Below are positions 8,351-64,000 of a DNA stretch of 64,000 nt, piece by piece; positions within the stretch are counted from its first letter, which is position 1, and every line of letters starts with the position of its first letter. Both the position numbers and the translations under genes were made by a program. The stretch comes from Perna viridis. Taxonomy: Eukaryota. The notes beneath the pieces are model-generated. The model was not told where the DNA came from and did not search any database. It saw only the letters and a list, made by a program, of their open reading frames with translations. The stretch is taken from the NCBI GenBank assembly GCA_037379345.1, contig CM074511.1:56922862-56986861 (forward strand), written 5' to 3'.

Positions 8351-8798
8351 CTGGAACTAGAGAATACACATTAAGGCTAAGACAATCATCCACCTGCGAT
8401 CCTGAATGTTTTGCTATCCTGATATATTCTCGTACCATCCTTGATGCTATCTTGTCATAAAACTGACTGACCCCATTAAATGGCTGAGGACAAACACCTT
8501 TGAAGGTCGTGCACGCAATATAATCCTCCTTTCTATTTGGTATAGCATCTGAAGCTGGATGGAAAGTAAATATTATATTACGCTTCAATGAACCATAGTC
8601 TACTCCGAGAAATGCTTCAATGTACCTCAAATATGGTGCTGTTGGAAAACTTACAGTTAATCCACGGATTTCACCATTTCTAATTTTAACTTTTCTCTGT
8701 CCCCAACTCTTTTTCTCAATAATAAATGAGAACATCGGCAGTTGAGCAAACAATATTGTATAGACATAGAAATTGTTGAATATTCTTGACAACAACAT
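8351..8798 (-). CDS. Neuroligin-like variable first coding exon V1 (signal-like N-terminus + N-terminal cholinesterase-like segment); exon only
   Basis: ATG at 8798 (MLLSRIFNNFYVYTILFAQLPMFSF). Motifs NGEIRGL, IEAFLGVDYG, FKGVCPQ-x33-CLSLNVY. Ends CCA G|GTAATC (GT at 8350-8349). Length 448 nt = 149 codons + 1, phase 1. Confidence 0.85.
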
Positions 8799-11530
8799 AT
8801 TCACTAAGGAATAAACTCTAACACGTAATACTGTTACATCTTTACCAACTGTAATAACAATCAACAAGATCACCGTAACACAATTAATATCTGTACATCT
8901 TCTATCTTTCGACAATATGTTAACAACCTCTCCACCGTAATGAGAATGGCGGTTTACATCATATTCAAGAAAGGATCAGAAAGCCAGATCAGTGCAATCC
9001 AGATCGACCCACAACGGTGTTTCCAATAAGATTTGGTAAGGTCGACTAATTTGTTCATTCCAAGACAGTTCTCCATAGGAAGTATTAGATAAAGGAAATC
9101 GAAATGAAAGTCAAAACTAAATTCTTACCAAATGATCCAATATTTATAGGATAATAAAGACAGACTCTAATTTCCATTAGGGACGATGCTCAATTTGATT
9201 TGACCGTAAATCAGAGTGCAGCGCAACAGCAAATGTTCAACAGAAGTATACATCTTCTTTTTCACTTAATTTGTTTATCTCCTAGTTCCTGGTGAGACCT
9301 ATTTCGTTATTGGATCCATGGTTTATAACTGCTTCCAACTGTATGCCTGGTATTCCCTATCTTCTCTTTATTTATAACCATTTTCTTCTGGATTGGAATA
9401 GATGAACAAAACTATGGTCTTAACGTCGCGATCGCCTTAAACGGTATCATTAAACCTCGATTTTGTTTTTCGTTTTCATAATTCCTAACCACATCATTTG
9501 CCAAAGGATATAAGACCAAGTGCTCATAGTTAACTGCATAATTGTGTCGTAAATAAAATATTTATCCCAGTATTGGTAATAACTATTAGTGCCAATGTGG
9601 TTTATAGGATTTATGTCAGAACAATTCAAACTAGAATACGTAGAATACACAGACGTTTGATCAAGCTCCTGATTGTGTAGATGAATCCTCAAATATATCA
9701 AAAAGTGAACAAGTTGCAAATGAAGCCAAGTACTATTAACAACATTCTGACAGCCCCAAATGTTAATTCAGCATCATGTTGCTGTCAATTTTCACAACTT
9801 TCAAAGCCCTTGTTATTGAAGGGCTATCAAGACGGAAATAACAGCACAGCTGAAGTGTATAATACCGAATTTCTGATTATAATGTGATATGACATGGAGT
9901 TCTTCTAAATTGGCAAGCTATAAAAGGGGAAGTAATAATATTAGTACCGAGAAAATTTCATTTATCATGTCTACAGCTGTTACAACTTGTGACTTTTATT
10001 GGAAATATGTTGGTACTGTAATCGCAGTTGGTATGAAGGGATGTAATACATCAAAGCTAAAATGTTCAGATATTGTATACTAATCGATTTGTATGTCTTT
10101 TTATATTATTTTTATTCATTTGGGTTAAAGTTTAAACAATGTTTATCTACAGACATATAAAATCTGTCTGTGCACCAGAACTGATAATATTGGGCAAGGG
10201 CTCACAAACTAAGTTGATAACCATAGGACTGATAACTCAAGATTGTCTGATCTTTACCAGTTATTAGTAATGAAGGTCGGTCAAATCTTTTTTTTTTTTT
10301 TTGTAAATCAACAATATGATTTTTTTGTTGTTGTAAAAACATGCACATTATAAAATTTCTATTACACATAAGAAAAAGAAAGAAGGGAGGTCGGGAGTGC
10401 ACCAAAGGGTTAATACCAGAATGTCAAAACTGGCAACAATCGTTGAGATTTTATCATATCATAAACTACAAAACAAACATAAACATGAATTCAAATGAAT
10501 AAATTTGCTCAATATTTCTTTATATTTTCACTAAATTATGAATACATTTCTTTCCTTTTTTCAATTAAGGCACTTTTTAAAAATTAAATTAAAATGATAG
10601 TTTACAATGGGTATAAGTAAAAATAAATCCAGAAGGACCCATGAGATATAAAACTGGACAATACCTGCATTTAGCTTCCCGAACCATTGGATTCCTTTCA
10701 AATTAGTAAATAAAATAATTCATATTTGCCATTCAATAAGACAATCAAAGAGAAAGACAAATAGCATACTTTAAAAGCTTAGCAATAACCTTGTGAAATA
10801 TTATTAAAATTATTAAATCATTTGATTGAAAGTAAAAACAGTTAATAAAGACTTACAGTCTACCAAAACGTTTGCTAATTTTCCTATTCACATCCTTTAG
10901 CTCGTTACACAGAATATTGCTTTTTCTTATCATTCTTCTACCATACCAATACTCACTCAGAATTCAATTCAGATTGAAAATGTTATTCATTTCACTAAAC
11001 ATGATAAATAATAATAATAATAATAATAAAATAAAAAAAACAAAAGCAAAAACAAAACCAAAACCAAAATGAAACAATCCAGCAAGACAAACCAAAACAA
11101 ACATGTCTCCATTTTCCGTTCAACTGGATAATTATTCGTGAATTCCAACCGTGCTCCAAATGTATACGCTATTCAAAATCATACTTATCTCACAAAAATG
11201 TTTGTATCACACAAAACATATTATATTAAAAGTTCCTATGACCGTCACCGTTAAGTTGTCTGAAACTGCGAGTGAACCTCCACAACGATAAAAGTTTTTC
11301 GGTTTTCTGAGTTGTTTTTGTCCAATGAACAGTCAACTGGACTAACATTCCTGTCAAAACCGGAAGGCGTACCCTACCGTTGCATGTATTCCAAGTCCCA
11401 AGTTGTCGGTAGAGACCAGGTTATTGATTTATTTTTTGTTTTGTTCTTGTTTAATTCGATTCCATCATACTTTATGCTGCTTTTACCGTTTTCTTTTCTA
11501 AATTTTTATCTTTATCTGTCTATTTTTAAC

Positions 11531-12047
11531 GCCCCTTGCAGGTCCGGGTGTTAAAAGAATAGGCCTGCAGCAGCGCTAAGCTTGTCGTAAAAGGCGACTA
11601 AATAGTGCTCAGAACCCCAGCCGGGGGCTAGGGCGCTCTGCCCACAGAGCAACTGGGATGTGTGCCCCAGGTGGTGGAACGGGGTACCCCTGGCGTGTTA
11701 CATGCTGGGGTTGTCAGGCTATAATACGGAAAACCTGACCGCAAACCATAGTGGTGCACCGTGTTGGGAAAGATGCCACGTTCCTCGCACGTTAAAGAGC
11801 CCTACTGTGGTATTCTCCCGGAGTAGGAACCATATGGCTCCGCCACAGGAGGCTAAATTGCCCGACCCTACCCATGTCTCCCTATTTCCAGTGGCAATCA
11901 AAATATGTCGACCCCATTATCCTTGTGTCCCATCCCTTTTTCATTTCATCATCATTTCATGTTCATTTTATCATCAATTTCATGTTCATCGTCTGAATAT
12001 AGCTGAAATATTGCTGCTCGGACGTTAAACCCCAACAAACAAACAAA
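11531..12047 (+). mobile_element. Non-autonomous SINE-like retroposon with structured 5' end and (CAAA)n tail
   Basis: High similarity to 28261-28749. Tail gacgttaaaccccaacaaacaaacaaac. Degenerate TSD ctatttttaac / ctaattttgac. Internal gcacgttaaagagccc recalls the Meta-SINE core (from memory, not searched). Confidence 0.8.
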
Positions 12048-12483: not shown

Positions 12484-13188
12484 AAGAGTAATCAAGAGAA
12501 CCAAGGTTATAGCGGTAATCAAAAGAATGCAATCCAGGGACAAAGACTACACATGGAAAACAGACATACACAACAAAGAACATAAAGTAACTAAAATCAT
12601 ACATACAAAGTAACAAAAGCAAATGAGCAACTCGGACTCTACTAAAAACTGGGAGCATGGACCAGGTGCACCGGTAGGGTAAGCGTCCTCTGCTATCCTA
12701 GAAACACCCGCCGAGTTGCTCATAAAAAGTCAAGTCCGGGGTAGACAAACGAGGAAAGGAAAACTATGACCCGTTGAATAAATCAGTTTTCATGGTGCAG
12801 ATGAATACACCATAACGATCCACGAGTTCATGATGACGACCATAAAACTTCTGTAGTGATAACTTCAATCTTGTAGCAACTTAACTCTGTTCCAGAAGCC
12901 TATTTGTTAGAGTTCTAGCGCGATACAAAGTCTGCCTAATTGCAGCAAGCACTGGCATAACGTATGAGTTGTGATACGAAAACTTCATGCGCAGATAGAT
13001 ACTGAAGTGATAGTGCCATAGATGAAAGGAAAGTTGATAATTCGGAAAGAAAAGTCATCACGTTTTTCGTAAAATTTGGTTAATAGTTTTCCTTTACCAT
13101 CGATCTCTAAGTGTAGGTCAAGATATGAGGCTGACTTTACTGTGTCTGTAGTATCCTTTATATCAAGTTCTTTGGGGTAGATGCGATG
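12484..13188 (-). mobile_element. Penelope-like (Naiad-type) retroelement 3' fragment
   Basis: HRIYPKELDIKDTTDTVKSASYLDLHLEID...KRDDFSFRIINFPF, plus the family 3' UTR ending ttgattactctt. Confidence 0.85.
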
Positions 13189-14716
13189 ATTTAAAAACGT
13201 TAAGGGAGAATTGCGTAACAATAACAACTCTCGGATTGTTGATATCAAAAATCGAAAAACCTTGAATTTAAGTAACATGTGATCCCTGCTATATCCGTTT
13301 AACGATGTGTTAAAAGCTTTCAAAATGTCATGAACTAACTGTCAAGTCATTAAAGAACAGTTCATTTGGTTAAGTCAAAAACCAAGAAAATAATTAATAC
13401 CCCGGCTTCTTTTGGATTGAACAATCTTACAGATTACATCCTGTCGTTTCCATGTGCAAACTGGATCTTAATCAATCCTTTAAGAAACAATTCTTAGGAA
13501 TTCATACGATTGACTTAACTAATTATGCCTGAAAAAGCACTATCAAATATAATCAATCTCAATGAAATTTGGCATCACAAAACTTTATATGCTTTTCAGA
13601 GAGAACATTTACGTGTATTGCGCAATTGCAGTTTGATTATGATCGATATTGTAAAATATTTTAAATTAGCTTAGTTGTTTCTGTGATATAATATTACATC
13701 ATAAATGTGACAATAAAATCTTTCAACGACGATTTCAAAGGGTTGTGAAGTCTTTTCCGATGTTTCAAGCTAGAACAATATAAGCAGAAAATAAAATAAA
13801 TGATGGGTCAGTGTGCTCGTTTTTGAGATATAAGTATTCGAAATTTTGGCGTGAAAAGGATTTCTCCTGACTTTTCACATGTTTTTTCTTAGTAGGTTTT
13901 ATCTATTGAAAACCTCAAAGAATTTCATAAGAACTTCCAAAATAACATTTTAAAGTGTGTTTAATGAAATTAATAAAATAAAAATGGGGTCACTGGGCAA
14001 AAAAAATACCAATGCTATGAAATAGATAAAACCAGAGAAGTCAGAAATTCTGACAATAAATGGCTAAACATAAGCAGCGAACATCCTGAAGATGAAGCAA
14101 AAAATGACTAAGACATCAATTTTCGTATGCTATGTTGAATGATTTAAAAAAAATAAATTACACATTCCCATCCGTTAAATACATCTGTCCACTCCGTATC
14201 GTACATTCCATTACCTTTCATAAGACAATCAAAAAAGATGTTCTTATCAAGGCTTATTCGTTCTTTACACTGTGGTGTGTTCTGTCATTGACGGAATAAG
14301 CTACACATGTTATGATTAGTATATTTGATATTGGATATACAATAAATGTAATTGTAAATAATATAGATTAAACGTTATTGTCTTGGGGATGAAGGTGTAA
14401 TTATTTATTCCGAATTAATTAAATGTCTAGTAATTGACTTAATCAAGATTCTTTTAAACCTCCTCAGGAATCTTAGGTAGTTTTTAAGTTTAACCATTTT
14501 CATAAAAAAAAACAAAAACAAAAACAAAAACAACACATCCAACAACAAACACAAGACTTTCCTAATAAATGGCATTTTCTTATAATGGTTTTATTCAAAT
14601 TGATGTTAGTAATGTCCGGAAAATTACATCCTGAATTGAAGAGTTATATGACAGAGAATTGAAGTATTCTTCGTGTAAAAGAAACATGATTGAACGAGGT
14701 CTGAATGAAAAAAAAA

Positions 14717-14928
14717 ACTAAATTATACTGATAGTATAGACATTACTTCACTAAATTATACTGATACTATAGACATTACTTCACTAAGTTTTACTGATAG
14801 TATAGACATTACTTCACTAAATTATACTGATAGTATAGACATTACTTCACTAAGTTATACTGATACTATAGACATTACTTCACTAAGTTTTACTGATAGT
14901 ATAGACATTACTTCACTAAGTTTTACTG
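14717..14928. repeat. Minisatellite, 33-bp unit, about 6.4 copies
   Basis: actaa(a/g)tt(a/t)tactgata(g/c)tatagacattacttc head-to-tail with no spacers. Confidence 0.95.
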
Positions 14929-15300
14929 CTTATTGATATATATATATATGTGTCATTTGAATAGCAAGACCAATACTATACTAATGACGTACAATCAAAA
15001 CAATAATCTGAATGTTTATAGAATTATTACGGTGTAAAACAAACAAAACAGATTACTACAAGACCTCGTGTACATCTTCTTAATTGCTTCATTAAGTTAG
15101 AAAAGTTTCTTCTTTATTTCATAGTTATTATAGCTTATATTAATTCATAAATTAGTAATAAATAATTGATAAGAGAAAACCTTTAACTACCAAGCCATTC
15201 TATTTTCCTTCTCCTTTAGCTTCCGGTAAAAAAAAGTTTTACAACGATTCTGTTCACACACTAAAACTTATTTTAATTTTGACCTTAAAGATACTTTTAC

Positions 15301-15715
15301 CTTTTATAGGAACATGTGTTATAAGATTCAAGCACTCTGACGATTTTTCAGGTATTTCAGAAACTACAGCATAAATTTTCTGTGCCACGTGTTTAGGTAC
15401 TTGGAGAACGTATTTGGTCCAATCTATGTCTTTTTGTACACACCCATGTCCTTTTCTTAGGTATGACTTCCGGTGTCGCCACTTTCGAGAAGAGGGCGGC
15501 ATAAATTGCATGTGTCCACCTCCAACGGAAGCATATGGAATTCCATAATAGCTATAAACTGGGAGTAAACTGGTAGTATTAGAAAAAGTTCTATAATGTC
15601 CTAACACGTGAACACGTCTTTTCCTATGGTGGTAATTAATAGATGACTTGTATCCACGATAAGCCGTTCCAGGTTGCAATATCAGAAGTATCACCACTGC
15701 TTTAAGGACTGTCAT
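15301..15715 (-). CDS. Neuroligin-like variable first coding exon V2
   Basis: ATG at 15715 (MTVLKAVVILLILQPGTA, signal-like). Motifs YYGIPYAS, QFMPPS..KW, CVQ-x33-CLNL..HVP. Ends AAA G|GTAAAA. Length 415 nt = 138 codons + 1. Confidence 0.85.
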
Positions 15716-18700
15716 ATTGTAGAGTGACAATAAAAACCTAGAAGTTATTGATTAGGGATGGATTAATTCCGATGGAGATTCTTCACAAAATCAATTCACC
15801 TGTAAGACAGGAATATTTTATTCACGTCGGGTGATAATTCATCGCAAAGACTTAATTAAGTCTGTCAATACAAAAAAGCCATCCATTTACCCAAGATTCT
15901 GTTTAAAGCTTACTTTACATTCAGTATGATATGTTTAGAAGGTAATCAAAGGAACAACGGAATCACTTAACGGAGTCGACCTCTTTCCTCTAAATTGATA
16001 GCCTAACATTGAACGATTTACGTAACTTAATTGCCTCTGTTCCTGTGTTTTTGCTATGTTATAGCTTCCTATTTTCCGGGTTATAACGTTCCTTGTCGAC
16101 TGGTTTTGTTTTACTCTTAAAACAATTTCCGTAGTATAAAAGTTTTTGAAGAGTTCCATTTGCCTAATCTATATCAAGGTCTCAATATATCCAAGAACTA
16201 AAACTTACCTTGTTGACATCATTTTATACGGATCATTGTTGCGCGTACGTTTAAATTATTGTATGAAGAAATAGAGGAAAAAAATGCATACTTCTAATTC
16301 ATATTCAACTAGTCATTTCTGTTTCCTATATTAATAATAAAACATGAATGTGAAAGGTAATAACAATACAGAACTGAACAGTAAAACACAACAGTCAAAA
16401 AGAAAGTCCGTCAAATAGCCGGTTATATCAGTGTAAAATCTGGAAAGTTGGAATAAAAAACTGCATTAGTCCTCATTTAGTACGTGCATAGAAATGGTTG
16501 GAAAACCAGGTCATATAGCGGCTAAACCTCCTACCTCCATTAGAGTTAAATTATTTCAAGACAAGAGGCATAAAATTGCAAAAGTTCAAAATCAGTAGTC
16601 AAAATAGTACAGTAGATATGAACAATAAGTAAGTTAAAATAAAAAGAATTTAATACGATTAAAATTAAGCAAAATTAAGAATACAAAAAAACTTGAAAAT
16701 AAGTCTTGAAGTTTTTGGAGTAGAGACGCCAAGTTCAAGATGAAAATAATAATTAACAAACAAAACCTACAAAAAATTAATTTGTTGACAAAAGGGAAAT
16801 TCATAATCTATAATCAATAAGATTTTGATATCGGAAATAAAACTTTTTTTGGCAGTGAAGGTGACGTATTGTTATAATCTTCGACCAGAAGCCTGTCTCT
16901 CAGGCAATGATGGTGCATGAAGAAATCACAAAAGACGCTACTAGCTCTGAAATACATCAACAAATAAACAATATGATTTCCTTATGCAGGGCAAACTGGT
17001 ATATAACAAGAAAAAATATAGATATACAATTAAAATCGTCTCGTTTGTCATATATTTTTGTAATGAGACAAATGTCGTCAAATTCGAGGTAAAGGTTAAA
17101 CAAGTACATCTTTAAATAAGATAGCCGACGCAGTAAATTTTACTTCTAAGTTTCTACATTTCTTTGAAGAAATTAACACATTAGCACGCAATTCAAATTT
17201 TCGATACAGTTTTTGAACGCTATTTCAAGTTTTCGATTCCGTTCTATGAATGCCACAAAGTTATCAGTATTTGGCCAATCGGGAAACAGAATTGCGATCA
17301 GGTGACTTGCGTTTCCATAGAAGAGCGTCCTTAAGGTCAAAGGGTTTAAAATGCGAAACTTTTCCTTGTTTGCGCTCATTTTGAAGTAGATTTTTTTTCT
17401 ATATAATTGTTTCACAAATATGTATAAGATTACAATACAAGTAACTCTTATGTTTTACAAATATATAAGTGCTAAGAAATCAGGCTTAATGTTTTTTTAT
17501 AGCTTTTTATTAAGAGATGTTGACATACATTTACAGCTGCTTCATGTTACACATACATGTACCAGCACTTGAGAATCATGAACTTTGTTTCATGCTTAAA
17601 TAGTGTCCCAGCACAGAAATGATCCGTTTTACTTTTGCTTTCTTCCCACTTCATCTAGTGAAACTGCCAAGTGATAACCACTGTAAAAAAATTAAGGAAA
17701 ACATCATAACAGTGTCTGATATATGCAAAATGTTACAATGTAAATTCATGAAAATATATATGTATTGTAACCATATGATATGGAGAAACCTCCTCTTGTT
17801 GGGAAATATTGTTACATGTACATATAATTTCGAGCAAATCAGACAAAAATAAAGGTTGGGTGGTTATAACAGTCCCAGGTTTTTACTGGTTTTTAAACCA
17901 CCTGGTCAATATTCCCACAGTGATCAATACGGGTCGATTGAAATTTGGCAAACAATATTTCTGACATTATTCATAGTTTTGCCCTACATAAAAAAATGTT
18001 AATATATTATATATCTACTATATTTCAGTGTACTTATGTTTTACTCTTAAAATATCTCTATCAGCTGTATTAATTAAGAAAAAATAAACATTTCTTTTTC
18101 TAAAATAATTCATATTTATCTGAAATAACGTAACAAACTTTATAAAAATGTACAGTGTATTTCATGAGCACATCTTTGTTCCAATAACTATTAATAACAG
18201 GTAACAAAAGTAAGAGTGGAACAAGTTAATTTTCACCTGTCATTGTTAAAACAGCATCCCCTCATAACCAGATAGATCATAAAAGGTGGTTTGAAGTGAT
18301 GAGTTTAAAACAATAAATTAGTCATTTCATTTACCAGACAAAAACCTTCTAAATACAGAAAATGGAAAGCTTGTTAATGATATTGCTTTAGGGCTTCTTC
18401 CATGTATGATTTTAGCCACCTGCTGATTTATAATGATGTTTGGACCCCCATTCCAATATCTCTGGATCAATCCCTGAATGTTGATTTACTTATGAGCAAT
18501 TAATGTCACATTGTAAAGTTGAAAACAAATTAGATACATGTATTACAAATATCATAATTTCAGGTATGAAATCTTTAATTGATACTGTATTGTATATACA
18601 ACTAACCAGAGTTACACACGTACACGTTGCACATGTATTCAGCGGTGTAAATTTATTGTTCACAGACATACAAATGTAAACTTCAAATTTTGCTAAGAAA

Positions 18701-19334
18701 TATGACTACACTGTTCTACATTAGCAATAAAAACAGTATGCCTATCACCGATTTTGAAAATTTTAAATAACTGTGTACATACAAAGTGTATGAATAAATA
18801 ATGTATACTTTTAACACTTACCTAGTACATTGTACATGTAAGAATGTCCATGAAAATCAGCTCTTAGGAAAAGTCTTCTTTCAATGCACTTTCATGGACA
18901 TAGAATTTCAAACATTATTGACGGTGTTTTTCTTGTGTCATGAAAATCCTGTTTCTTACTTTATGATCTACATCATAAATAAATGTATCTGGTATATCTT
19001 GACAATGTACTAAAAAGAACCATAATGATATGGTCAGTTATGACTTACATGGATATAATACACATGTACATTGTATTACTATTTCTTTGAATTCCATACT
19101 GAATCGTACATGCCTAAATCTGTATCCCATGCAACATCAACAGGACACTCCTATATCAACTCAAGGGCCACTGGCCCACGGGGTGATATAGGTCGAGGGC
19201 TGATACTGCATATCAAACAAATTTTTGCATGTCATGTTCATTCTTTCTTGTATTTTATCAATACAAATTGTACTTCAATTAAGTTCTGTGCAAGGTGTAC
19301 CGTACATATCACATCCACAGACATATATTGCATA

Positions 19335-19572
19335 GCTTTATACACCCTTAGACCTATATTGCATACCTTATATCACACCTGTGATATGTACGGTACTTAA
19401 AATGGGTTTAGGGGTGTGGCATACAGTATGCGATATAGGTCTAAGGGTGTGATATAGAATACATTATAGGTCTACGAGTGTGTTATACAGTATGAGATAT
19501 GTCTAGTGGTGTGATATATGGTATGCAATATAGGTATATGGGTGTGATATAGGGTATGCGATAAAGGTCTAG
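19335..19572. repeat. Foldback-like repeat: about 33-bp subunits in tandem and inverted orientation
   Basis: cacccttagacctatattgcatac on the left is complementary to repeated gtatgcgatataggtctaagggtg on the right. Confidence 0.7.
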
Positions 19573-20459
19573 AGTCGGTGTGGAAGTTTGGATTTTAGGA
19601 ACATGTACAAGTGTACATGTATGTGTAGTGTCATGGCTCCTGTGTCCACTCGCGTCCCAAGGACATTACTTTATTTCACTGGATACCCCCTTTTTTGATA
19701 GTTCAAGATCACCTCCTGAATGAGATGAATATGTTACATGACTTCCTTTCATCCTTACCGTTGAAACAGAGACATTGTTTAAGTCTCTGCTTTGAAATCA
19801 TAATAATTTAACAATTCTGTTTATTTTCTATTTTAAATACTTCATTGTTTACTACATGTATGTACATGTGTGTTTACCATTTTATTTTATTTACGTACAT
19901 GTACATGTAGTAATTAACATATATGTACATAGTGCTTGCATTTTATGTACAGGAGTAAATTTCCTCGGATCAAACAAATCACACGTGAATTTTTTCAATA
20001 AAAAGGAGGGGTGTCCACCCCACGCACCCTCCCCTGGATCCGCCACTGTAATCTATATTTACTACTCAAAAAGTGTACGTTGCAGCTCCGAAAATCCGTC
20101 ATTAGAAGCTCCCGACATCTTCATTAACAGGGTCAGATCGAGAGAAATTAGATTGGCAAATCTCGATTCAGCTTTCCTCCTTGCGAATGTTCGAGTCATT
20201 TTGACAAAATAGTCCAGCTCTCTGCGTCAAAATTTAAATACATGTAATCATTGAAACATTGCAGTTCTACACATATTAAATTTATACGCCCATGTCGTAC
20301 GTAAAGTAAACATCACATATTTGACATGGAGCGGCCGAGCGATATCTTTATGCAAACTTTGCAAGAATAACCCGCGGAGTGTTATTTTAGTAGTTATGTG
20401 TGGAAATGTCTACCCTGGTTACGTAATTTGGTTGCCGACGATCAGTCTATAAATAGACT

Positions 20460-21030
20460 TCCTTGATAAAAATGGATTGTTAATGAAGAGAACACCGTCA
20501 ATACATCGATATGTGAAATTAAGAATTCTAACTTCTTTAATCATCTTGACTTTCACAAGATTTTGAAGAATTACCGATTCATATGAATAAAGGAAAGGAT
20601 TGGCTAAGAAAAGGGTCCATTTTAATGCCGATAATTTGTTAAAAAAGTGTTCCTCCAAAAGATACAAATGTGTTGTCAAGAAGAAACTCTAGCTTATGAT
20701 CATCTATTGGCCGATGTATAAACTTGAGTTTTTTTTTTTGTTTTTTTGTTTTTTTTTGTTTTTTGTTTTTGTTTTTGTTTTTGTTTTTTTTTTGGGGGGG
20801 GGTTCTGAAGTGGTAAAAGTGTAGATTTGTAGCCTGAAACAACAATTTTGTAAGAATTCTTACAAGGAAATGCTTTGTGAATGATTTTTAGACTGGTTTT
20901 TAATTTATTACAGAAGTAAGTAGTATTTGATGTTGAAAAGTCAAAAGTTTAAGTAGTATTAACATCCACAAAGGAGCAAGATATAAGATTTTATACTTTT
21001 TGAGAATCCACATATGACTAATACCACTAC
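20460..21030 (-). mobile_element. Highly decayed Penelope-like RT fragment
   Basis: SGISHMWILK, LEFLLDNTFVSFGG, LANPFLYSYE, FTYRCIDGVLFINNP. Confidence 0.7.
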
Positions 21031-21577
21031 AAGGGTAAATAGTGTAGTATTTGTGTTGTTTCTCCTTCACTTACGGTGATTAAACAGTAATGGACAGTGA
21101 AGTTAACATGTTTCTTACACAAGTGTGTCTTGTATTCTAAATTAACGTTCTGTAGGATAAAACCTTCAAGACAAAAAGCGTGAAATCATTTGATAAGCGC
21201 ATGGCTAACACACTTGAAGTGTGTCTTGCATATTTGAATAAGTTGTTATTGAATAACATGTTGATCTACATTTCAGCAGGACTATATTTTGTCACTCAGT
21301 GTATTAGATAAGCAAATTTATAAAGAGAATGTAAAAGAGTAATTGCATTTATATAACTGTCTGTTCATTAAAGTGAATCAGAAAATAATTTTCATCATGG
21401 TTGGAAAAATTAAAATTTAGTAGAAAGATTCTAGTTTATCATTGCTATATTTTTGTTGTTGTTTAACAATTGATACTAATGCCGAACCCGTGCTTAAAAA
21501 GCGATTATCTTAAGTCTCCATCATTTATTTCTGATTAAAACCTCATTCGTTGATTCCAAAGAACAATTAAACTTCTA

Positions 21578-22462
21578 CAGGTCACAACATCTTCAGTGAT
21601 AGGCAAAACCCATACCATAAAACAAGCTGTAAAAGCCCCCCCCCCCCAACAACCCCAAAAAAGGGGGGATTGGATGGATATAACTTCGAAAATACTTCAA
21701 TAACAAGACAAATAAAAAAGAAAAGAATACAATATATCAAAGAGACAACAACCCCACCTTGACTAAAATGTCAGCCCAAGGCCACCAATTGGTCTTCAAT
21801 AAACGACGAGGAAGTCATCACACCTAAGGGTAGGGAGAAGCTGGCCCCAAAGCATCATTAAGCATAGCTACAGCGAATGAGTTGCCCCTACATACTCAAG
21901 TAACATAAAAATAAACTAAAGATGAAACGAAACAAGACATACAAAGGCCATAAATTCCTGACCTGGTACAGGCGCAAAAACAAATGCGGTGGCGGGGTTA
22001 AATACTATGGCGTATTCACAACTTCCGTGTAACAACGGAAATAAAGAAACTGAATATAAATTACACAAATGTACAAACTAAGGACTACTAGCAGTTAAGT
22101 GACATGCCAGCTCAAGACCACTTTAAACTTTCAAAAAGTCATGTCCCTATCGTATGTAAAATCAATCTAATGCGGGATTGAGAATCACGGTACATCATAA
22201 GTCGTAAAATAAGGACACAATTCATGTCATGCCAGAAGATGCTTTAAAATATAATGTTTTAGTTTCTATGTATAGACCCTATACGCTAATCAATTAAACT
22301 TTTACTGGTCACCTCACAGTCTTCAATGAAAAGCAAAACCCATACCATAAAACAAACTGTAAGAGCGCCCCCTCACCCCTCCAAAAAAGAGAGGAAAATT
22401 GGATATGCCCATTAACTTCAAAAATACTTCAATAACAGGATAAATAAAAAAGGAAAAATACA
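21578..22462. repeat. Interspersed repeat bounded by about 150-bp direct repeats (21578-21730 and 22305-22462)
   Basis: gcaaaacccataccataaaacaa.ctgtaa and aaaatacttcaataaca.ga.aaataaaaaag occur in both. May be pseudo-LTR-like ends. Confidence 0.65.
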
Positions 22463-24809
22463 GGAGTGTAGGTTAACTACTTACAAATTGAAAAGTAAGG
22501 ATTATTACGAGAATATGTATGGTGACAATAGGGCATGAAAAATCCCCCTTTTATTAAGTTTACCATTATCGATATGATTACTAAGATCAAGAAACGGACA
22601 TTCTTTATTATCGATATTTGCTTAATTCAAAGACAGTTCTACAGGATATACATCTTTAGTATAAATATTGAAGTCATCATTGTTTAGATCTAGAATACCG
22701 TCCAAATATCTAAAGGTGTTATTATTTTTTTCTGGAAATTTCTTTATTTATTCTAGCCATAAATTGTGATTCGTAATAGTACAGAAAGAGGTCGGCAATA
22801 AGTAGTGCATAATTGGTCCCCATACTGCATACTCTTCTTAGAGATGAGTTGAATATATTTATTGAAATAACAAAACACCCGTATGGTATCTATCGTTAAA
22901 AAACAAATGGTCCAATCGAACTGGTACTATATTTTATCATTGAACAACATTAAAATAAACTAGAAGTCAGAGGAAGTCTTTAGGGAGTAATGATACAAGA
23001 AATTGCTGCTCCAACATACAATGCAAGCATTATCGGAAGGACATGTTTTATTGTTCATAATTGATCGTAATTGTTTTATCGTCGAAATCAACCTTTAAAT
23101 GGATCTGGAAAGTATAATGTGGAGCCTGACGGACATCCTGCTTTTCATAGCTAAGTCAAATTTAATAAATATTCTAAAAAATCAAATATAGGGCAAATAT
23201 ATTCGCTATCCGACTCAATGAATTACTTTATTATAAAAAAGTACGAGAAACACTCAAAATAACTTAGTTATCGTGTCCCGTTTTTTTCCCAGGACTTCTT
23301 TATATATACAAAGTAACAAAGTAATTTGATAATTTTCGCTGAATAGTCTTGAGGGATATCGATTATAAACTCGTATTACTGTTAAACATAAGTATATCGA
23401 TATTCTTGTAAATACTGTCAGTAGCGTTAGATGAAAGCGCAATAACTCTGATTTGGCGTCGATTATATAATACTTAGTGAAACAAACATTTTCATCTACA
23501 TTTTTTCAGACTGCAGCAACACCAAAAGTATGTTTTCTTTGCAAGATATTTTGTTTTGTTAAAGACTATCCCAAAATATTGATGGTTTAAGAATTACACC
23601 TTAATTATATATAACCATTTTGCTCAGTTAAAAATATTGTTCAATAGATAGTATAATTACAGGCCGATAATATTAATGTAATTTATTGGTATAAAGCGTC
23701 TTTTAACTATTTTTTCCAATATTTTTTACACTAAAACTGGATAATTTATATAAGAAATCATTTTTTTTATATCAAGTATATTTTTTCATACCAAATGTTG
23801 ATTATATATAAGAAAATTGATATATTTTTTTCAGAAGGTAATAAGTTTTTATCTATTAAAACAAACAAAAAAAATTATAAAAATGATAATAATAAATAAG
23901 TAAATAATCATTTTTTTATGTCAATGAATGATATCGATAATTGATTAATTTATATGAAAAAATCTTTTCTTGATATCATAATTTAAGATTGCTTTGTGAT
24001 ATTAAAATCAGTAATGAGAAAAACAACAGTGGTTCCAAAATATGTCTTCTATTCTAATACTAGAAAATGGTTCTTGTTATAACAGATATAATAATATTTT
24101 TGTAAATCAACATTCTATTTATATATAAAATACTATTTTTATTATTTGTTAAACAATTTTTTTGGCGGGAGTCCAATTTTCTCATTGTCTGCTGTCGTCA
24201 TCTCTTCCTCAAAATATGTCATAACACTGAAAAATTCAGCTCTCGCAAAAGTAAATAGAAACAAACAAAGAAATAAAAAAAAAAAACCTAAATGCAAATT
24301 ATCCAAAATAGACAAATTAACAATAAAAGCAAAACGAAATAAAATAAAGGAACAAATAAATACGAAAAACAACCAAAAGATAAACAAATATAAAACAAGA
24401 GAAAATGACTAGAAAAACATCAAATTACAAAACTAAATAGATAACTTTGTCATATTTGTCATATCTCTGAATAGAGAACCTAAATTTCTCACAACTCCAA
24501 TCAAAAAGAATAAAATGAATATATTTGATTACGACAACAATATCAAGAATATACCAGCAAACATTCTACAGACTGGGACAAACACTTCATTTATAATATC
24601 ATAATAAAACTGATCTGTATTTAGCCTTAAAACACTATCTCTGGGGATGTTTTTCCTATTTGTGAACCACATTATATTTTTCAGTATTGAACAGAGTGAA
24701 ACATTAGGTCTTGATATGGTTAGATTAAAGAATTAACCCGGATGTTATGATTTCATGTTTTTTTTCCGACCGTATATTTTTTTAGGGTTGTTAGATATGA
24801 AATAGATCT

Positions 24810-25013
24810 GACATAACTAATCGCTTTAACTGATCATCGATCACTAATCGTATAGATCACAATCGAATGAAAATAGATTAATTGGTTCTGTAAATCGAAC
24901 ACTTGTCGATCAAACTCTCAAAAGAGTTCGACTTACAGAACTAATCAAATCGATTATCATTCAATTTGTGAACGATAAGTAATCGATGATCAGTTTGATT
25001 GATAAACTATGTC
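24810..25013. repeat. Long imperfect inverted repeat (about 90-bp arms, 25-nt loop), MITE-like
   Basis: Paired blocks gacata/tatgtc, aactgatcatcgat/atcgatgatcagtt, ttctgtaaatcgaac/gttcgacttacagaa. Confidence 0.85.
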
Positions 25014-26314
25014 GAGAATAAAGTAAAAATTAGAAAATGGTAATTGGGAATGAAAATCTTGATTTATTGATCTGATGCTTGCTTAAGATTGGCGATGATG
25101 CATGCTCAAAAGCAAAAATGAAATACTATTGAATAAGGAAAAACTAGTTTTCTTTTTAACATTGATGCAATTACATTCATATTTGGTTGCACTTTCCTAT
25201 CTTTAATTCCTTAGAGGGACTATGATTGTAAAATAAAACGATACTCTTTGAAGACATTATTTTGGATAAACAACTCTTTTTGAGAAGTAATGACGTTCGA
25301 TACTTACGACATTGAAAAAAAATTATATTTTTATTTGTGATAAAAATTTGTTCATACGAATTTTCAAAAAAATCTTGTAACAGTTTTAGATCAGTTGTTA
25401 GTATCAATGAATATTAATACAAACTCTTTGTCAGTAACACATATTCATTTTTTCGACGTGTACTGCAAATTAATATTAAGTATATATCATTAATTGTACC
25501 TATTACTTTAACTGTTTTTTTAAATTAATTTAAAGTGAAAATAAAAAGGCTTTAATTGTTTATAGGTTTTCAAATATCAAACGTTCTTGAAAGGCAATAA
25601 CTCGTGCTGAAAATAACGCGAAGAACGCATTTGCATCTTAACAAATGCATATTTCAGAATTCTTCATTGATTTTTATGCTAAATGAACTAATTTTTGACT
25701 GACTCAAGGGAGTTAAACACACTATTGTTCAATTGTAACAAAATTAGATTTCACTTTCAAATCAGCGTAGTATGAGAATTTATTGCAACAGACACATTAA
25801 GAATGTTTTTTATATTGTTAGAATGGCTATTACCTAACATAAAACCGTTTTCCATCATTTATCAAATACAAAGTGTTTTGAAATAAAGTGAATTAGAAAT
25901 TCTGTTTATCTTGACTACCTGACAAATGGTTAGTTAAAACTTTCAAATTTTTGCAATTCCTGCGGAAAAAAAATAAGTAACCTCTATTACAAAGTTAATG
26001 ATGGTCAAAATGATTCTAACTTAAAGTACGTTTATCAAAGTTAAAACTGTATATGCAGATATTCAAGTATAAATATAACCCCTCTTCTGGTAAATGCCAG
26101 TATTTTCCCACAATCTACCACAAATTTAGTATGCCTGCCAATGTTCTCATGTTTTGTTAATATTAGACCTAAAAGATGTAAAATTCACAAACGTTCAACT
26201 TCCACATCGATCAAAACAGTGTTGTTTTAGCCATTAAATCAAATGAATTGAATAACATTGCTTTGAACATCACCGAGAAAAAAGTGTGACCGGAGGTAAA
26301 GTTTCGTAATGTAT

Positions 26315-26667: not shown

Positions 26668-26716
26668 TTTAACGTCTTGTGTGTGTACATCTACTATAGA
26701 TAAAATATACACTTAC

Positions 26717-27164
26717 CTAAAACAGGAACAAATAAGTTAATAAGAAAACATTCCTCGTATTGGTTGATCAGAAACCGAGATTTCCTTTCCATTTGTTCTA
26801 TATATAGCAATGGAAACATTTCTTTCATTTCTTTTTCATTCATGTCACGTTGAGGACATACTCCATAGCTATTATTGTAAGAGAAAATGTTCAACTGTGA
26901 CAGTGACATAGTGGGAAACATCTCGCGTGTTCTAAAACGTAAGACTTGTTCATTTGTGGCAAATTGAATGTCTTTGAACACTTGAACTTTTCGCAACTGT
27001 GAATTCCAAAACGTTTTTAACATTCCAAGTAAGTTGCCATTGTTAAGCAGATACCGACGAAGCTCGATACTTTTAAAGACTTTAGGTTTATATCCAATGT
27101 TCAGTTGAATAATAAAAAATAGAAGGAAACATAATCTCCAACTGTTCTCAAAAAGGGCCTTCAT
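26717..27164 (-). CDS. Neuroligin-like variable first coding exon V3
   Basis: ATG at 27164 (MKALFENSWRLCFLLFFIIQLNIG). Motifs NGNLLG, VQVFKDIQFA, LRF, GVCPQ...NQYEECFLINLFVP. Ends TTA G|GTAAGT. Length 448 nt = 149 codons + 1. Confidence 0.85.
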
Positions 27165-33279: not shown

Positions 33280-33691
33280 CTTTGGAAGAAACAAACATGT
33301 TAAGAACCAGACAATCCTCATGTTGTCGTATAATATACGGTTGTAATCTTCTCAAATTCGTCATTTTTATAGAAGAGTAATTGACTATAGATTGTCTTTC
33401 CTTATCCAGTGACTGTGGACAAACACATCCTCTGTTTTGACCGGAAAAACGTCTAACTTCCATCCATTGTTCTACAGAGCCTATTGGCTCCTCAAATCGT
33501 TTCGAGCTTGCGAAGTGAAATCCGCGGAAAACCTCGGCTGGTGATAAAGAATCATTTTCAAACTTAAATATCATTCCAGATACAGGCCCGTGCCTTGTGG
33601 TGAAAAGGCTAGGTGCAGTCTGCCATCGGCAATTCGCCAAATAGAGATGAAATGATATAAAAAACCAGAGTAAACTCGATGATGTATCCAT
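33280..33691 (-). CDS. Neuroligin-like variable first coding exon V4
   Basis: ATG at 33691 (MDTSSSLLWFFISFHLYLANC). Motifs TTRHGPVSG, AEVFRGFHFAS, RFEEP, VCPQ...LRRLQPYIIRQHEDCLVLNMFV. Ends AAA G|GTGAGT. Length 412 nt = 137 codons + 1. Confidence 0.88.
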
Positions 33692-48348: not shown

Positions 48349-48945
48349 AAGAGTAATCAAGGAAACCAAGGTTATAGCGGTAATCAAAAGCATGTAATCC
48401 AGGGACAAAGACCAGACATGGAACACAGACATACACAACAAAGAACATAAAGTAACTAAAATCATACATACAAAGTAACACAAGTAAATGAGCAACTCAG
48501 ACTCAACTAAAACCTGGGAGCATGGACCAGGTGCACCGGTAGGGTAAGGGTCCTCTGCTTTTCTAGAAACACCCGCTGAGTTGCTCATAAAAAGTCAAGT
48601 CCGGGGTAGACAAACGCGGAAAGGAAAACTATGACCCGTTGAATAAATCAGTTTTCATGGTGCTGATGGATACACCATAACGATCCACGAGTTCATGATG
48701 ACGACCATAAAACTTCTGTAGTGATGACTTCAATCTTGTAGCAACATAACCCTGTTCTAGAAGCCTATTTGTTAGAGTTCTAGCGCGATACAAAAAGTCT
48801 GCGTAGTTTCGGCAAGCTCTGGCATAACGTATGAGTTGCGATATGAACACTCCATACGCAGGAGCCGAAGGGATGTGGAAACAGATGAAAGGAAAGTTGA
48901 CAATTCTGAATGAAAAGTCATCACGTTTGTCGTAATGTTTGGTCA
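48349..48945 (-). mobile_element. Penelope-like (Naiad-type) 3' fragment, little decayed
   Basis: FISQLIRYARACRNYADF...HHELVDRYGVSISTMKTDLFNGS* plus full 3' UTR. Confidence 0.88.
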
Positions 48946-49434
48946 GGTTGTATTATTTTTTGTTGTTGATTGTAACAATTGTGAAACATTGATTTTGTTA
49001 AATGCTACAAGACACCTACACAGACAATCAAATGAAATTGATACACTAGTCTCTAGCATGCATTTTAGATTTTCCTAATCTTCAGTAAAAAGCAGCCTTC
49101 TCACACAAATTGCCCATCTGTCTTGTAGCTTTTCCCTCAGAAAACAACATAAGATCTTATATAACGTAAGGTACAAAATGATATTGTGTTGTATGTATAT
49201 AAAGTGCTAGATGCAATGTGTCAATTTATTGTCTTCATAATGTATCTTTCATTTGTCATTCCTCTGCCGATAAAAAAATGTGTTTTGGAGGTATCTATGT
49301 TTTGTTTCTTCTTATTCAATTAATATTATTCACTCAGACTCGACAATACAAAATAATCGAAAATTGCTATCAAAATAACCCTTCTAAAATTAAATACATT
49401 TCTTAGCTGTCATCGCCATATGAAAGAAGCGATG

Positions 49435-51041: not shown

Positions 51042-51498
51042 CTTTTCTAGGAATATTGAGATTAAGCATTAAACACTCCTCCCTTCTATAAGTAATATAT
51101 TGTTTTATATGATGTAAGCGTTCCTGGAGGATCACAAAGGATAACGGTTCATTTTGCATCGTGAACTTTTCTCTCTGAGGACAAACACCTCTAAAACTTG
51201 TATTGTAAAAGACGCGTGTTCCAAGCCATTTTTCAAGAGTTCCCGATGGAGGCATAAACCTCAATCTTTTTTGTCTTGTAGAAGCAAATTGGAGACCACT
51301 AAAAACTTCAGTTGGCAGTAGATTTTCCCGTTTAAATATCATTCCGACCAGACTACCATATCGTGTAGTAAATACACGTGGCTCCAACCTTCTACGTGAT
51401 ACTGTACTTCTTTCACATCTTGTAAACTTTGTTATGAATATTAAACTTTGCCATAATATAACTCCTGTAAACATGGATTTAACGTCAGAGGCCAGCAT
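51042..51498 (-). CDS. Neuroligin-like variable first coding exon V5
   Basis: ATG at 51498, with an alternative in-frame ATG at 51474. Motifs RVFTTRYGSLVG, TEVFSGLQFAS, LRFMPP, KWLGTR, FRGVCPQ...EECLMLNLNIP. Ends AAA G|GTAATG. Length 457 nt = 152 codons + 1. Confidence 0.88.
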
Positions 51499-55497: not shown

Positions 55498-55894
55498 CTT
55501 TCATTGGAACATACACATTGATTTTTAGACACCCCTCCGTTTGCTTAAGCAAATAAGGCTCTATTCTCCGTAAACGACTTAAAACGTAAAATGACAGAGT
55601 CATGCTCATCGACCTCAAATGACGAAATTGTTGGTAGCAAACAACCATTGAACTAGAAGCCATGAATGATCTCGAATGATTCCATTCCTTGTTCAGTATC
55701 AATGGTTCACGAAATCTGCCAAGTAAGCCATATTGAATTCCTCGGAACGCTTTAATTGTTCCTAAAGACTGATTTTGGAATGGGATCAGCATTCCGGACA
55801 TTGGTCGTAAATTGATGCTTTTTTCACAACACACATACCACACTTCAGTTATCAAAAGCAGAGCCCAGATATTTTCCAAAATAGTACACCACAT
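55498..55894 (-). CDS. Neuroligin-like variable first coding exon V6
   Basis: ATG at 55894 (MWCTILENIWALLLITEVWYVCC). Motifs IKAFRGIQYG, RFREP, VCYQ...RLRRIEPYLLKQTEGCLKINVYVP. Ends AAA G|GTAAGT. Length 397 nt = 132 codons + 1. Confidence 0.85.
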
Positions 55895-61475: not shown

Positions 61476-62178
61476 ATTATTGCTTTCTGACCTATTTCTT
61501 CACTCTTATGAGGCAAACTTTATAACTAATCTAATCCAAAAGAAGACACTTCGTTTAGCCATATCCTTTGATCTCAGTTTCCGCTTTATAGATGACGTAT
61601 TATCGTCGAACAGTCCTAGTTTCGGAGATTTTATACATCGCATCTACCCTACAGAACTTGAGATAAAGGATACTAGACAATGTGAAGTCAGCCTCCTATC
61701 TTGACCTAAACTTTGAGATTAATGGTAAAGGAAAACTATTGACAAAACTGTACTACAAACGCAATGACTTTTTAATCTGCATTTCTTTTCATCTGTAGCA
61801 ACTTCAACATCCCTGCAGAACCTGCGTGTGGAGTTTTCACATCACACCTCATTCTTTATGCCAGAACTTGCTGTAACAACGCAGACTTTTTTCAGCGCGC
61901 TAGACTGCTTACAATTGGGCTTCTGGAAAAGGGTTATATGGTAAGATTGAAGTGGTCACAACAGAAGTTTTATGGTCGTCATCATGAACTCGTGGATCAT
62001 TACGGTGTTCCCATCTGCACCACGAGAACCGTTTTATTCAACGTGTCATAGTTTTTCTTTTTCGTCTGCCCGGAATTGACTTTTATGAGCAACTCAGCGG
62101 GTGTTTTTAGAAAAGCACAGAAAGATTAACCTACCGGTACACCTTGTCCACGCTCCCAGTTTTTAGTGAAGTCCGAGT
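61476..62178 (+). mobile_element. Penelope-like (Naiad-type) 3' fragment
   Basis: DLFLHSYEANF...SFRFIDDVLS...HRIYPTELEIKDT plus thumb and partial 3' UTR. Confidence 0.88.
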
Positions 62179-63749
62179 CGAACGAGATAACAAGATATAT
62201 ATATGTATACGTGGTTACATGGCATTCACATTTTGGCAAGTAATATGTCCTCAAATGTGTAATATGTTCCAAAAAATCAGTTATTTCAGAAAACTTTAAT
62301 CGCGTTAGGTATCATCATCAGAATCTTCCAATAATCACTGCTACTTATTTGTTTAAGCTGAAGCACGACCTACTAAAATTAGCTTTAAAAATGCTTTTGT
62401 ACTGTATACGTTCATTGAAGTTCCCCTTAAAAGATGTAATATAGCAAACTTTTCTCCACTGCATAATTGATGTAAAGAAAAGACTATAAAAGTCTCGATA
62501 GTTTATTAAACATTTCTAGCCAAAGGCTCTAAATTTCAACGTTTAAAAATCTCAATTACAATTAACGATAACCAGTTGCAAACAATTTAGAAATAATACA
62601 AGTAAGTTTATTCCTCTACTGTTGCACCTGGTTCGTGTTTCCAGTTTGTGTCTGAGTTGTTAAACATATATATTCCTTTTGTGGTTCCCATTTGTTTTAG
62701 CCCAATTCCATACAATTCAGTTTGATCCTAGCATAAAGACTGGTCAGGATACATATTCAATTATAACCAATCTTTTATTCCGGTACTTTGCAGTAAACTA
62801 TAACTTAAAATGAAGAATCATTTACTACCTACATAATGACCCGATTACTTAAACAGGTTGAATGCACTATGTGTTCAAGCATCAACTTGCTTTTAAGTAC
62901 AATTAAAGAAAAGCCAACCTTCAACATGAGGTAATTTTCTAATATTTTCCTCAGGAATCTGAGAAAAATTCTCTTTCAATTTATTTCGTTTACCTTGCGG
63001 ATATGACAAGTAAGTCTGTAGGTAAAATCCTTCAAGGAATTATTGTCAATATCAAATAGAGAGCATTTCGTTGTAATTGAAAGAGTAGACTTAACTTATT
63101 GGCCATATGCAAGTTGATAATTCGTAGTCTGTCCCGAAGCTTAGAATTATCAAAGCTTGAGAGAACTGGAATTAAAAAAAAAAAGTTGTTTACCGATTTT
63201 TTCCCCCTTAGTCTAAAGTGTATTTTCAGTTCGACACAAATTTTAAATGCACTAAGTTTTTTGACAACAATGAAATGTCTTAGGTTGAATTCCAATCAAT
63301 TAATAATGATAATAACAATACGAAATTTCATTTGAAAATCATGTACATGTAGGCAGTCAATCTATGTCTTCAAACTTAACAAGACATAAAATGATTATTT
63401 CAATGCTCGAAGGCATTTTTACCGTATATTGTCACTAGCAGGGATAGAAGCAGTGAGGAAAATTGACGAATCAAATGTCTTCTATTGAATTGTTAAATAA
63501 AAACAAATTTGGTTCAACCTGATTAAAAGCGCGTCTTCCTGGGTAAAAATATGCACTAAATTATTTTTGCCTTATAGATCATGAGATACATTGATAAAAA
63601 ATGACGATTGACAAACAAGAATAGTGGCGGGAGTAAATTTTTAAAACGTTTATAGAATCTTTTGTAAAATGCAATATTGACTTAATTGTTATCAAATGAT
63701 TCTTTAACAAATTTGTCATCATTGCTAAAGAATTGTTACAATTACTAAC

Positions 63750-64000
63750 CTTTGACTAGGATGTAAAGATTAAGATTCAGGCACTCCTCTGATATCTGTA
63801 AAACAAAAGGTTCAATATTCCTTAAACGATTACGTAAAAAATCACTGGAGTTTATAATTTGAGGACAAACACTTCTAAAACGTCTGTATGAAAATACTCT
63901 CACTGACAACCATTTCTCCAGAGAACCAGTTGGAGGCATGTATCTCATCTTGTAACTTTTGGTTGAAGCATACTGAAATCCATTAAATATCTCCACAGGC
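63750..64000 (-). CDS. Neuroligin-like variable first coding exon V7 (5' part beyond window edge)
   Basis: Frame is open to the window edge: PVEIFNGFQYAS..MRYMPP..KW..FRSVCPQ...RLRNIEPFVLQISEECLNLNLYILVK. Ends AAA G|GTTAGT, phase 1. Confidence 0.85.

Follow-up and report, generated by a model that had tools for sequence, protein, structure and literature searches.

A window of 64,000 nucleotides on contig CM074511.1 (C1) of Perna viridis contains seven related exons, and the locus raises the question of which protein these variable (V) exons belong to, how one of them is selected, and what their divergence does to the product. What is known of neuroligin diversity comes from a few genes and from short inserts added by splicing, whereas here a slice of the folded neuroligin ectodomain is exchanged via a tandem exon array. 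The reading we favour, with a probability slightly better than even, is that of a catalytically dead neuroligin in which one of eight tandem first coding exons, likely taken by promoter choice, is joined to a shared body, such that the neurexin site would be the same in every isoform whilst binding of a putative second partner at the Cys-loop face likely differs.

The exons of this gene are collected in Table 1. V1 comprises a signal-like segment, an N-terminal part of the esterase fold and the Cys loop, whilst the ATG of V7 lies past the window edge (C1:56987010, 149 bases beyond). Neither a profile search of C1:56863001-57114000 nor tblastn retrieved further V exons near the gene. The genome harbours four paralogous genes of this type, with 8, 12, 5 and 1 V exons (26 in total). 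All 26 have a Met and hydrophobic stretch 85-105 amino acids before the first Cys, judged signal-like by hydropathy and not by a trained predictor, and a phase-1 GT donor located 34 nt (24 exons) or 37 nt (2 exons) downstream of the first base of the second Cys codon; the acceptor of constant exon 2 is phase 1 and fits these donors.

Table 1. Variable and constant exons of the C1 gene. Plain positions are those of the window, those prefixed C1 are contig positions; Cys codons are given by the first base of each.
Feature	Position	Strand	Loop	Cys codons	Description
V1	8351..8798	-	C-x35-C	8492/8384	Variable first coding exon, running from its ATG to a phase-1 donor
V2	15301..15715	-	C-x35-C	15442/15334	Variable exon
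V3	26717..27164	-	C-x35-C	26858/26750	Variable exon
V4	33280..33691	-	C-x35-C	33421/33313	Variable exon
V5	51042..51474	-	C-x35-C	51183/51075	Variable exon
V6	55498..55894	-	C-x35-C	55639/55531	Variable exon
V7	63750..64000	-	C-x27-C	63867/63783	Variable exon
V0	C1:56907784-56908216		C-x36-C		Eighth V exon, left of window
Five constant exons	about C1:56880245-56885336				Common body of gene, 37-43 kb left of window: one exon with VHGESY, one with GHGYG (Ser-less), a large one, a short one and the last exon

The original prediction assigned these exons to a neuroligin, and the constant region bears this out: the catalytic Ser motif position reads GHGYG (constant exon 3), the last exon encodes a TM segment and a PDZ-type tail ending in ...PITVV before the stop, and neuroligins are the best matches. 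GxSxG is replaced by GHGYG or GHGHG in the constant regions of all four paralogous genes, and the neuroligin call is upheld because GHGYG stands in place of an intact GxSAG. The V profile matched neuroligin-4 with an E-value of 7e-18, against 1.6e-6 for cholinesterase, and the constant exon matched neuroligin at 6e-53 against 1e-32 for the esterase side; Foldseek E-values obtained with a Mytilus counterpart also placed neuroligins ahead of esterases. The best named sequence matches were all neuroligin-like, the trees being built without gliotactin, neurotactin and glutactin. The constant exon is 89% identical to Mytilus RefSeq proteins, and the AlphaFold model of a Mytilus counterpart has a predicted helix at 700-741, matching the expectation of a TM segment. 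The LRE motif reads LYE here. A Ser-less cholinesterase-like ectodomain, C-x35-C, TM segment and PDZ-type tail are thus shared with known neuroligins (vertebrate NLGN1-4; PDB 3biw, 2wqz, 5oj6; mollusc RefSeq ‘neuroligin-4-like’), whereas the variation of vertebrate neuroligins consists of short inserts at two splice sites, A and B (PMC5563082), and here the signal peptide and an N-terminal segment including the Cys loop are exchanged. Judged by its sequence, the gene is a catalytically dead neuroligin, with predicted neurexin binding and a putative role in organising synapses. A UGT1A-like array of catalytic carboxylesterases with exchangeable substrate lids would account for the Pfam COesterase matches in 7/7 window exons and for the position of the loop as a lid over the gorge in the esterase fold, but it was rejected on the missing catalytic Ser in all four constant regions; with the TM segment and PDZ-type tail, and with neuroligins above esterases by both sequence and Foldseek E-value, its probability is next to nil.

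The spacing between the two cysteines had been described as an invariant C-x35-C framing barely alignable loops. It was exact in V1-V6 (6/6), and the three loop strings quoted in support were present, but invariant it is not, as V7, which lay inside the span claimed, has x27 and V0 has x36. Genome-wide, x35 was found in 11 of the 26 V exons, with 34-36 residues in 19, 22-30 in seven and a range of 22-36. Database bivalve proteins had x35 in 23 of 49 distinct loops (range 21-39), and non-bivalve neuroligin-like proteins had x35 in 14/74 and x38 in 51/74, arthropod neuroligins being mostly x38. The x35 given for neuroligin-1 was confirmed, the neuroligin-1 and -4 chains aligning to the V profile with the loop ungapped; the loop of four fish carboxylesterases is x26, the spacing that the original prediction gave for the omega loop of Torpedo AChE (Cys67-Cys94). 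Loop interiors of V1-V6 were indeed near chance similarity, with identities of 9.5% ungapped over 15 pairs (6.4% shuffled) and 17.0% gapped (15.8% shuffled). The endings of V4, V6 and V7 were as quoted, save that three residues and not two separate P[YF] from Q, and their resemblance to invertebrate neuroligins was evident in the arthropod ending LKRLLPYLxNQSEDC. The equal length is an inheritance from a common ancestral exon and no chance match, 35 probably being the ancestral spiralian and vertebrate loop length, kept together with the hydrophobic register. Hydrophobic loop positions 10, 14, 19, 22, 25, 28 and 29 are retained, and the correlation with ordinary neuroligins (rho 0.62-0.65; 0.62 for the register) agrees with the proposal of structural constraint beneath a diverging surface.

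V1 was found joined directly to constant exon 2, skipping V0, in RNA-type contigs of runs X1 and X18, and V0 was joined to the same exon in an RNA-type contig of run X3, so that own splicing to the constant exons was observed for two of the eight V exons. The RNA type of these runs is a guess made without an RNA record, backed by an intron-skipping joint in 4/4 runs. When V2-V4 (window 15200-33800) were compared with four RNA-type runs, only repeats were matched and the exons were uncovered, from which silence does not follow. The gene joins a single one of its eight tandem first coding exons to one body, as observed for V0 and V1, likely by promoter choice, and is a protocadherin/UGT1-like variable-first-exon neuroligin. 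A shared promoter motif was not found in the 26 upstream regions (top 8-mer in 5/26, background 4-6). It could be argued that the V exons are internal and spliced in a mutually exclusive manner, all behind a single promoter and a common non-coding exon upstream, as in Dscam1, given that vertebrate neuroligins have non-coding 5' exons, that the database isoforms P0060 and P0235 start only in exon 2, and that none of the RNA-type contigs extends upstream of any V ATG. We consider this improbable, as the 320 nt preceding each of the 26 ATGs showed no excess of acceptor-like sites (11.1 vs 11.2, p 0.42) and the exons of the C1 gene are scattered over about 80 kb.

Hypervariability had further been ascribed to the loop specifically. 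Loop-only hypervariability was rejected, since the entire V exon changes at 2-4 times the rate of the constant region, a ratio of about 1 in neuroligins with a single such exon, whereas the loop/flank rate ratio of array exons (1.5-1.9) was no higher than that of ordinary spiralian neuroligins used as controls (1.7-2.1); 12 of 16 control pairs were counted, with Haliotis P0016 and Patella P0018 left out as two-exon genes. Because pooled dN/dS was about 0.3 in the loop and 0.2 in the flank, with dS near saturation, the acceleration is as compatible with relaxed constraint as with selection. These values derive from simple counting over 15 paralogous pairs, several values being undefined, and positive selection was not demonstrated on these pairs (pooled dN/dS <1).

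The V exons are as divergent among themselves as distant family members, and their classes are common to Mytilus and to the paralogous genes. Monophyly of the eight C1 exons was rejected (p-AU 4e-54), and with it a recent species-specific expansion. In quick trees of 110-112 columns, which do not resolve the deep forks, V1 grouped with Mytilus P0003, V5 with P0061 and V6 with P0069. It is conceivable, though less likely, that within the same architecture the V exons persist because of their promoters, for tissue- or stage-specific expression, and that most of the differences in protein are drift tolerated by an N-terminal segment under weak constraint. Acceleration of the whole exon beyond the loop alone, the pooled dN/dS and the wandering of bivalve loop length from 21 to 39 are in keeping with such drift, as is the comparison of V5 with Mytilus P0061 (x34), just 10% identical in the loop and 74% in the flank. 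In several V classes, class-specific loops are nonetheless kept across lineages: V0, V1 and C5 V1-V4 have loops 45-68% identical to those of Mytilus, and loops of two scallop genera are 94-97% identical, whereas identity between classes is about 15-20%. The neuroligin loop is no dispensable surface, because it is highly conserved (66%) in arthropod neuroligins.

Fast evolution of the whole exon might also reflect diversification by non-neural recognition or conflict, involving a parasite, toxin or matrix glycan on the exposed N-terminal face and no synaptic partners. The C5 gene holds recent lineage-specific duplicates, including two small pairs with loop dN >= dS, and in vertebrates heparan sulphate is bound more strongly when splice site A carries a basic insert (PMC7486126). 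Compared with single-exon neuroligins, V exons also show a wider spread of net charge in the loop (Levene p 0.004) and in the flank (0.03), on sequences that are related and non-independent. However, loops of congeneric Mytilus orthologues are 87-100% identical and pooled dN/dS is below 1, and we rate such a conflict more remote still than the Dscam1-like arrangement.

In the favoured model of a dead neuroligin with exchangeable first exons, each V exon supplies the Met, a hydrophobic signal-like stretch and an N-terminal segment of the esterase fold, with a phase-1 donor fitting exon 2. By analogy with vertebrate structures, the gorge of the dead active site would be covered by the loop as a lid of two helices, the length and hydrophobic register of the loop being held by packing with no strict ruler, and its exposed residues would be part of the surface bound in vertebrates by MDGA Ig2, whilst the neurexin, PTPdelta, dimer, membrane and PDZ elements would be constant across isoforms. 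In vertebrates, the Cys loop Ala110-Pro132 occludes the gorge and belongs to MDGA site II, site I being formed by residues 289-499 (PMC5563082); PTPdelta contacts are likewise C-terminal (PMC7988105), and the face opposite neurexin has long been considered a likely site for other partners (PMC5943944). The expectation that neurexin contacts lie C-terminal to the V exon therefore stands, with the Cys loop on the site of another partner (PMC5563082, PMC5943944). Isoforms would share neurexin binding and likely differ toward a putative second partner; natural variants alter part of the non-neurexin face and leave the rest constant, and therefore the question of other partners is directly testable. 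AlphaFold models of the Mytilus counterparts P0003 and P0061 (69- and 67-row alignments) were confident in the constant part and low to moderate in the V part, with helices predicted inside the loop of both. The V part was docked canonically in neither model: only residues 122-578 of one aligned to solved structures, and residues 67-106 and 132-153 of the other had pLDDT <50. A more speculative proposal, to which we attach a low probability, is that molluscs, and bivalves in particular, have made neuroligin a protocadherin-like identity code, in which cells would choose among up to 26 front ends from four genes by promoter and pair them via the constant dimer interface, the Cys-loop face selecting the putative partner with neurexin binding fixed.

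No paper on a mollusc neuroligin array was found in literature searches, the scope of which lay outside subscription journals and supplements. The protocadherin variable exon encodes the whole ectodomain, whereas the part encoded by a V exon is roughly one fifth of a single folded domain. The vertebrate clusters of protocadherins, UGT1 and GCNT2 are similar in that tandem homologous first coding exons are joined onto one constant set (PMC1885805, PMC3325998), but they are of unrelated family, and a promoter element in common was not found in the 26 upstream regions. The 5' cassette arrays of chelicerate sDscam (PMC10084454) are alike in representing invertebrate neural adhesion, tandem 5' variable exons and several paralogous array genes, yet they encode Ig domains with up to 100 exons, against 1-12 per gene here. 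Protocadherins and sDscam are further marked by stochastic choice in each cell and by isoform-specific recognition; homophilic binding of that kind is not known for these neuroligins. Should promoter choice be true, the gene design of protocadherins and sDscam would have arisen independently once more, this time in a new family and in animals whose ganglia are simple.

Among RefSeq isoforms, several N-termini on a single constant region were found in Mytilus, Crassostrea, Saccostrea, scallops, Mercenaria, Mya, Ruditapes and Ostrea. Two gastropod genera have two N-termini, and the cephalopod (Octopus, Sepia-type) and nemertean (Lineus) entries show a single one. These isoforms (X1-X15 in Mytilus, oyster, scallop and clam neuroligin-4-like) share the constant region and alternative N-termini with the present genes, but are automatic annotations in which the array is undescribed, and the Mytilus entries have one constant region against four paralogous genes here. 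Three of their classes group with V1, V5 and V6, whilst V2 forms the longest branch among the C1 exons and has a basic flank with a net charge of +12.

Six-frame translation of the window, G000:C1:56922862-56986861, revealed seven related minus-strand open frames, the variable first coding exons V1-V7, all of which (7/7) matched positions 1 to 90-95 of Pfam COesterase, with E-values of 8e-10 to 8e-3. Each is closed by a phase-1 GT donor 34 nt past the start of the second conserved Cys codon, and constant exon 2, belonging to the shared body, has a phase-1 acceptor at its start. An eighth such exon, V0, was located outside the window, and no copy beyond V0 and V1-V7 was found up to C1:57114000 in the 251 kb read. 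The 172 N between V4 and V5 are too short to conceal a V exon, and none was present in their flanks.

The assignment of these exons to a neuroligin held. Searches of the PDB with the V profile placed neuroligins at the top (E 7e-18; best cholinesterase 1.6e-6), neuroligin-1 and -4 aligned to that profile with no gap in the loop, and the large constant exon matched neuroligin at 6e-53 versus 1e-32 for cholinesterase. An intact GxSAG was sought in the constant region, and constant exon 3 instead carries GHGYG at the esterase GxSxG position; with the neuroligin-first matches, the neuroligin identity therefore stands. The last constant exon encodes a TM segment and then a ...PITVV end, and judged from sequence the gene qualifies as a neuroligin on all features that this analysis could assess. 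The LRE motif (vertebrate MDGA site II) is LYE, MYE or IYE in this gene (constant exon 4), its three paralogues, Mytilus and one scallop.

Four contig sets of presumed RNA type (X1, X3, X4 and X18) were aligned to exons 2-3 and their loose ends compared by eye. The 437-nt intron between these exons was skipped in 4/4 sets. Exon 2 was preceded by the 3' end of V1 in X1 and X18, hence V1 reaches exon 2 without V0, and by the end of V0, with one base differing, in X3; X4 ended at the exon 2 junction. V2-V4 had zero cover in four runs, which is uninformative as to their expression.

Direct counting bore out the noted spacing of exactly 35 residues (x35) between the two conserved cysteines of V1-V6; V7 has 27. 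The loops are also barely alignable, as had been described: identity in the 31-residue loop interior, taken across all 15 V1-V6 pairs, was 9.5% ungapped (shuffled 6.4%) and 17.0% gapped (shuffled 15.8%), and the 62 residues preceding the first cysteine were 26.3% identical (shuffled 17.0%). The supposed invariance of the spacing was not upheld, x35 occurring in 6/8 V exons of the C1 gene, 11/26 genome-wide (range 22-36), 23/49 distinct database bivalve loops (range 21-39) and 14/74 non-bivalve loops, of which 51/74 were x38 and 9/74 of other lengths (ten further proteins, not parsable, were left out of this count). The spiralian entries (cephalopod, nemertean, annelid, brachiopod and bryozoan) have x35, as do neuroligin-1 and -4, hence the best reading of this length is that it is ancestral; four fish carboxylesterases have x26. 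Loop length is a fair clue to family and no diagnostic, and the 35-residue spacing by itself is an ordinary inherited trait.

Hydrophobic loop positions 10, 14, 19, 22, 25, 28 and 29 are held in common with non-bivalve neuroligins, the per-position hydrophobic fraction of x35 loops correlating with theirs (Spearman 0.65 over 24 bivalve loops and 0.62 over V1-V6). The loop ends, CxQ and E-[DE]-C, are preserved as well. AlphaFold models of two Mytilus counterparts contain two helices between the cysteines; in the same models the V part is not docked as in solved structures. From the kept hydrophobic register, the modelled helices and the neuroligin-1 Cys loop, which blocks the would-be gorge according to PMC5563082, we infer that the loop may be a packed two-helix lid.

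Four paralogous genes occur in the genome, their large constant exons 74-91% identical and grouping together, with or next to Mytilus; with 200-250 kb read around each, 8 V exons were counted on C1, 12 on C5, and 5 (63.05 Mb) and 1 (36.21 Mb) on C2. A single clade of the eight C1 exons was rejected in quick trees (p-AU 4e-54). Loops are short (x22-30) in the six distal V exons of the C5 gene, some of which are recent duplicates. V classes common to the three arrays stand in similar order, which suggests that whole arrays were duplicated. In quick trees these classes crossed genes and species, V0 falling with the Mytilus protein P0001, V1 with P0003, V5 with P0061, and V4 and V6 with P0069; on such comparisons the array predates both the gene duplications and the divergence from Mytilus. 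Differing N-termini on one constant region were found among RefSeq proteins of Mytilus species, oysters (two genes), scallops, Mercenaria, Mya, Ruditapes and Ostrea. In Haliotis (P0016/P0217) and in Patella (P0018/P0223) one neuroligin body carries two N-termini, hence this arrangement may have arisen before bivalves and gastropods diverged; among the members listed, Octopus/Argonauta, a Sepia-type cluster and Lineus have one.

Evolutionary rate was measured as -ln(identity) on matched pairs, which share constant regions and are hence non-independent. Flank/constant ratios in the arrays were 4.0 both for 10 pairs of the Perna viridis genome versus Mytilus and for 7 pairs taken across paralogous genes, 3.3-4.0 for 8 pairs from oysters and 2.2 for 5 from clams, whereas controls gave 1.0 for 2 pairs of single-exon spiralian genes, 0.9 for 3 pairs of gastropod main exons and 1.1 for 7 pairs from arthropods. 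The loop, predicted to be hypervariable, is the most variable part, but its loop/flank ratio of 1.5-1.9 in arrays versus 1.7-2.1 in spiralian controls (0.65 in arthropods) does not single it out. The original prediction was thus confirmed in part as an observation and supported in part as an interpretation, the V1-V6 count and neuroligin standing, and invariance and the singling out of the loop falling. Pooled over 15 paralogous pairs, dN was 0.65 in the loop and 0.36 in the flank (dS 2.0 and 1.7), with no sign of overall positive selection in a comparison of little power; orthologous loops within Mytilus were 87-100% identical. Beside these figures stands the main rival explanation, that the V exons are kept for their expression pattern while their proteins drift, which we regard as rather unlikely.

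The most likely working, which our analysis mildly favours, is that a promoter would pick one V exon, that the protein would retain neurexin binding, dimerisation and scaffolding whichever is chosen, and that isoform differences would fall on the Cys-loop face. In vertebrates, site I for neurexin and MDGA Ig1 comprises neuroligin-1 residues 289-307, 377-385, 392-398 and 496-499, and MDGA Ig2 contacts dimer-region helices and the Cys loop Ala110-Pro132 (PMC5563082); the PTPdelta contacts named on neuroligin-3 lie at residue 302 or beyond (PMC7988105), a constitutive heparan sulphate surface lies near the dimer interface (PMC7486126), and a review assigns the Cys loop to the opposite side from neurexin and proposes that other partners bind there (PMC5943944). 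The vertebrate partner sites, Cys loop excepted, map to constant exons. In gene build the mussel neuroligin resembles clustered protocadherins, UGT1 and chelicerate sDscam (PMC10084454 for the last of these), any promoter choice or per-cell selection in it being hypothetical. The variable-exon neuroligin is real and old, and its isoforms are already present as automatic RefSeq models. It is apparently undescribed so far, no paper on a neuroligin V-exon array having been found in the open-access literature.

The introns harbour decayed copies of one retroelement fragment, which we take to be reverse-transcriptase-like, and the second copy of a short interspersed repeat had very high contig depth in 4/4 runs.

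Locations of features in and around the window and of the paralogous genes
Feature	Location	Remarks
Five constant exons	about G000:C1:56880245-56885336	37-43 kb left of window
V0	G000:C1:56907784-56908216	x36; ~15 kb left of window
Run of N	window 38455-38626	
C5 paralogue	G000:C5:16274824-16430823 (L021-L037)	12 intact V exons
Degenerate V remnant	C5:16394024-16394173	
C2 paralogue	G000:C2:62982594-63061905	5 V exons
C2 paralogue	C2:36208465-36220199	1 V exon
About eight other multi-exon COesterase-family genes, clustered	G000:C1:57.98-58.28 Mb	~1 Mb from locus
Retroelement fragments	window 12988-13341, 36016-37425, 39831-40196, 48632-48952, 61776-62048	
Short interspersed repeat	window about 11600-12000 and 28300-28750	two copies
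Tandem repeat	window 2127-2415	period 113
Tandem repeat	window 14717-14928	period 33
Tandem repeat	window 19405-19572	period 31-33
Tandem repeat	window 45680-46143	period 236
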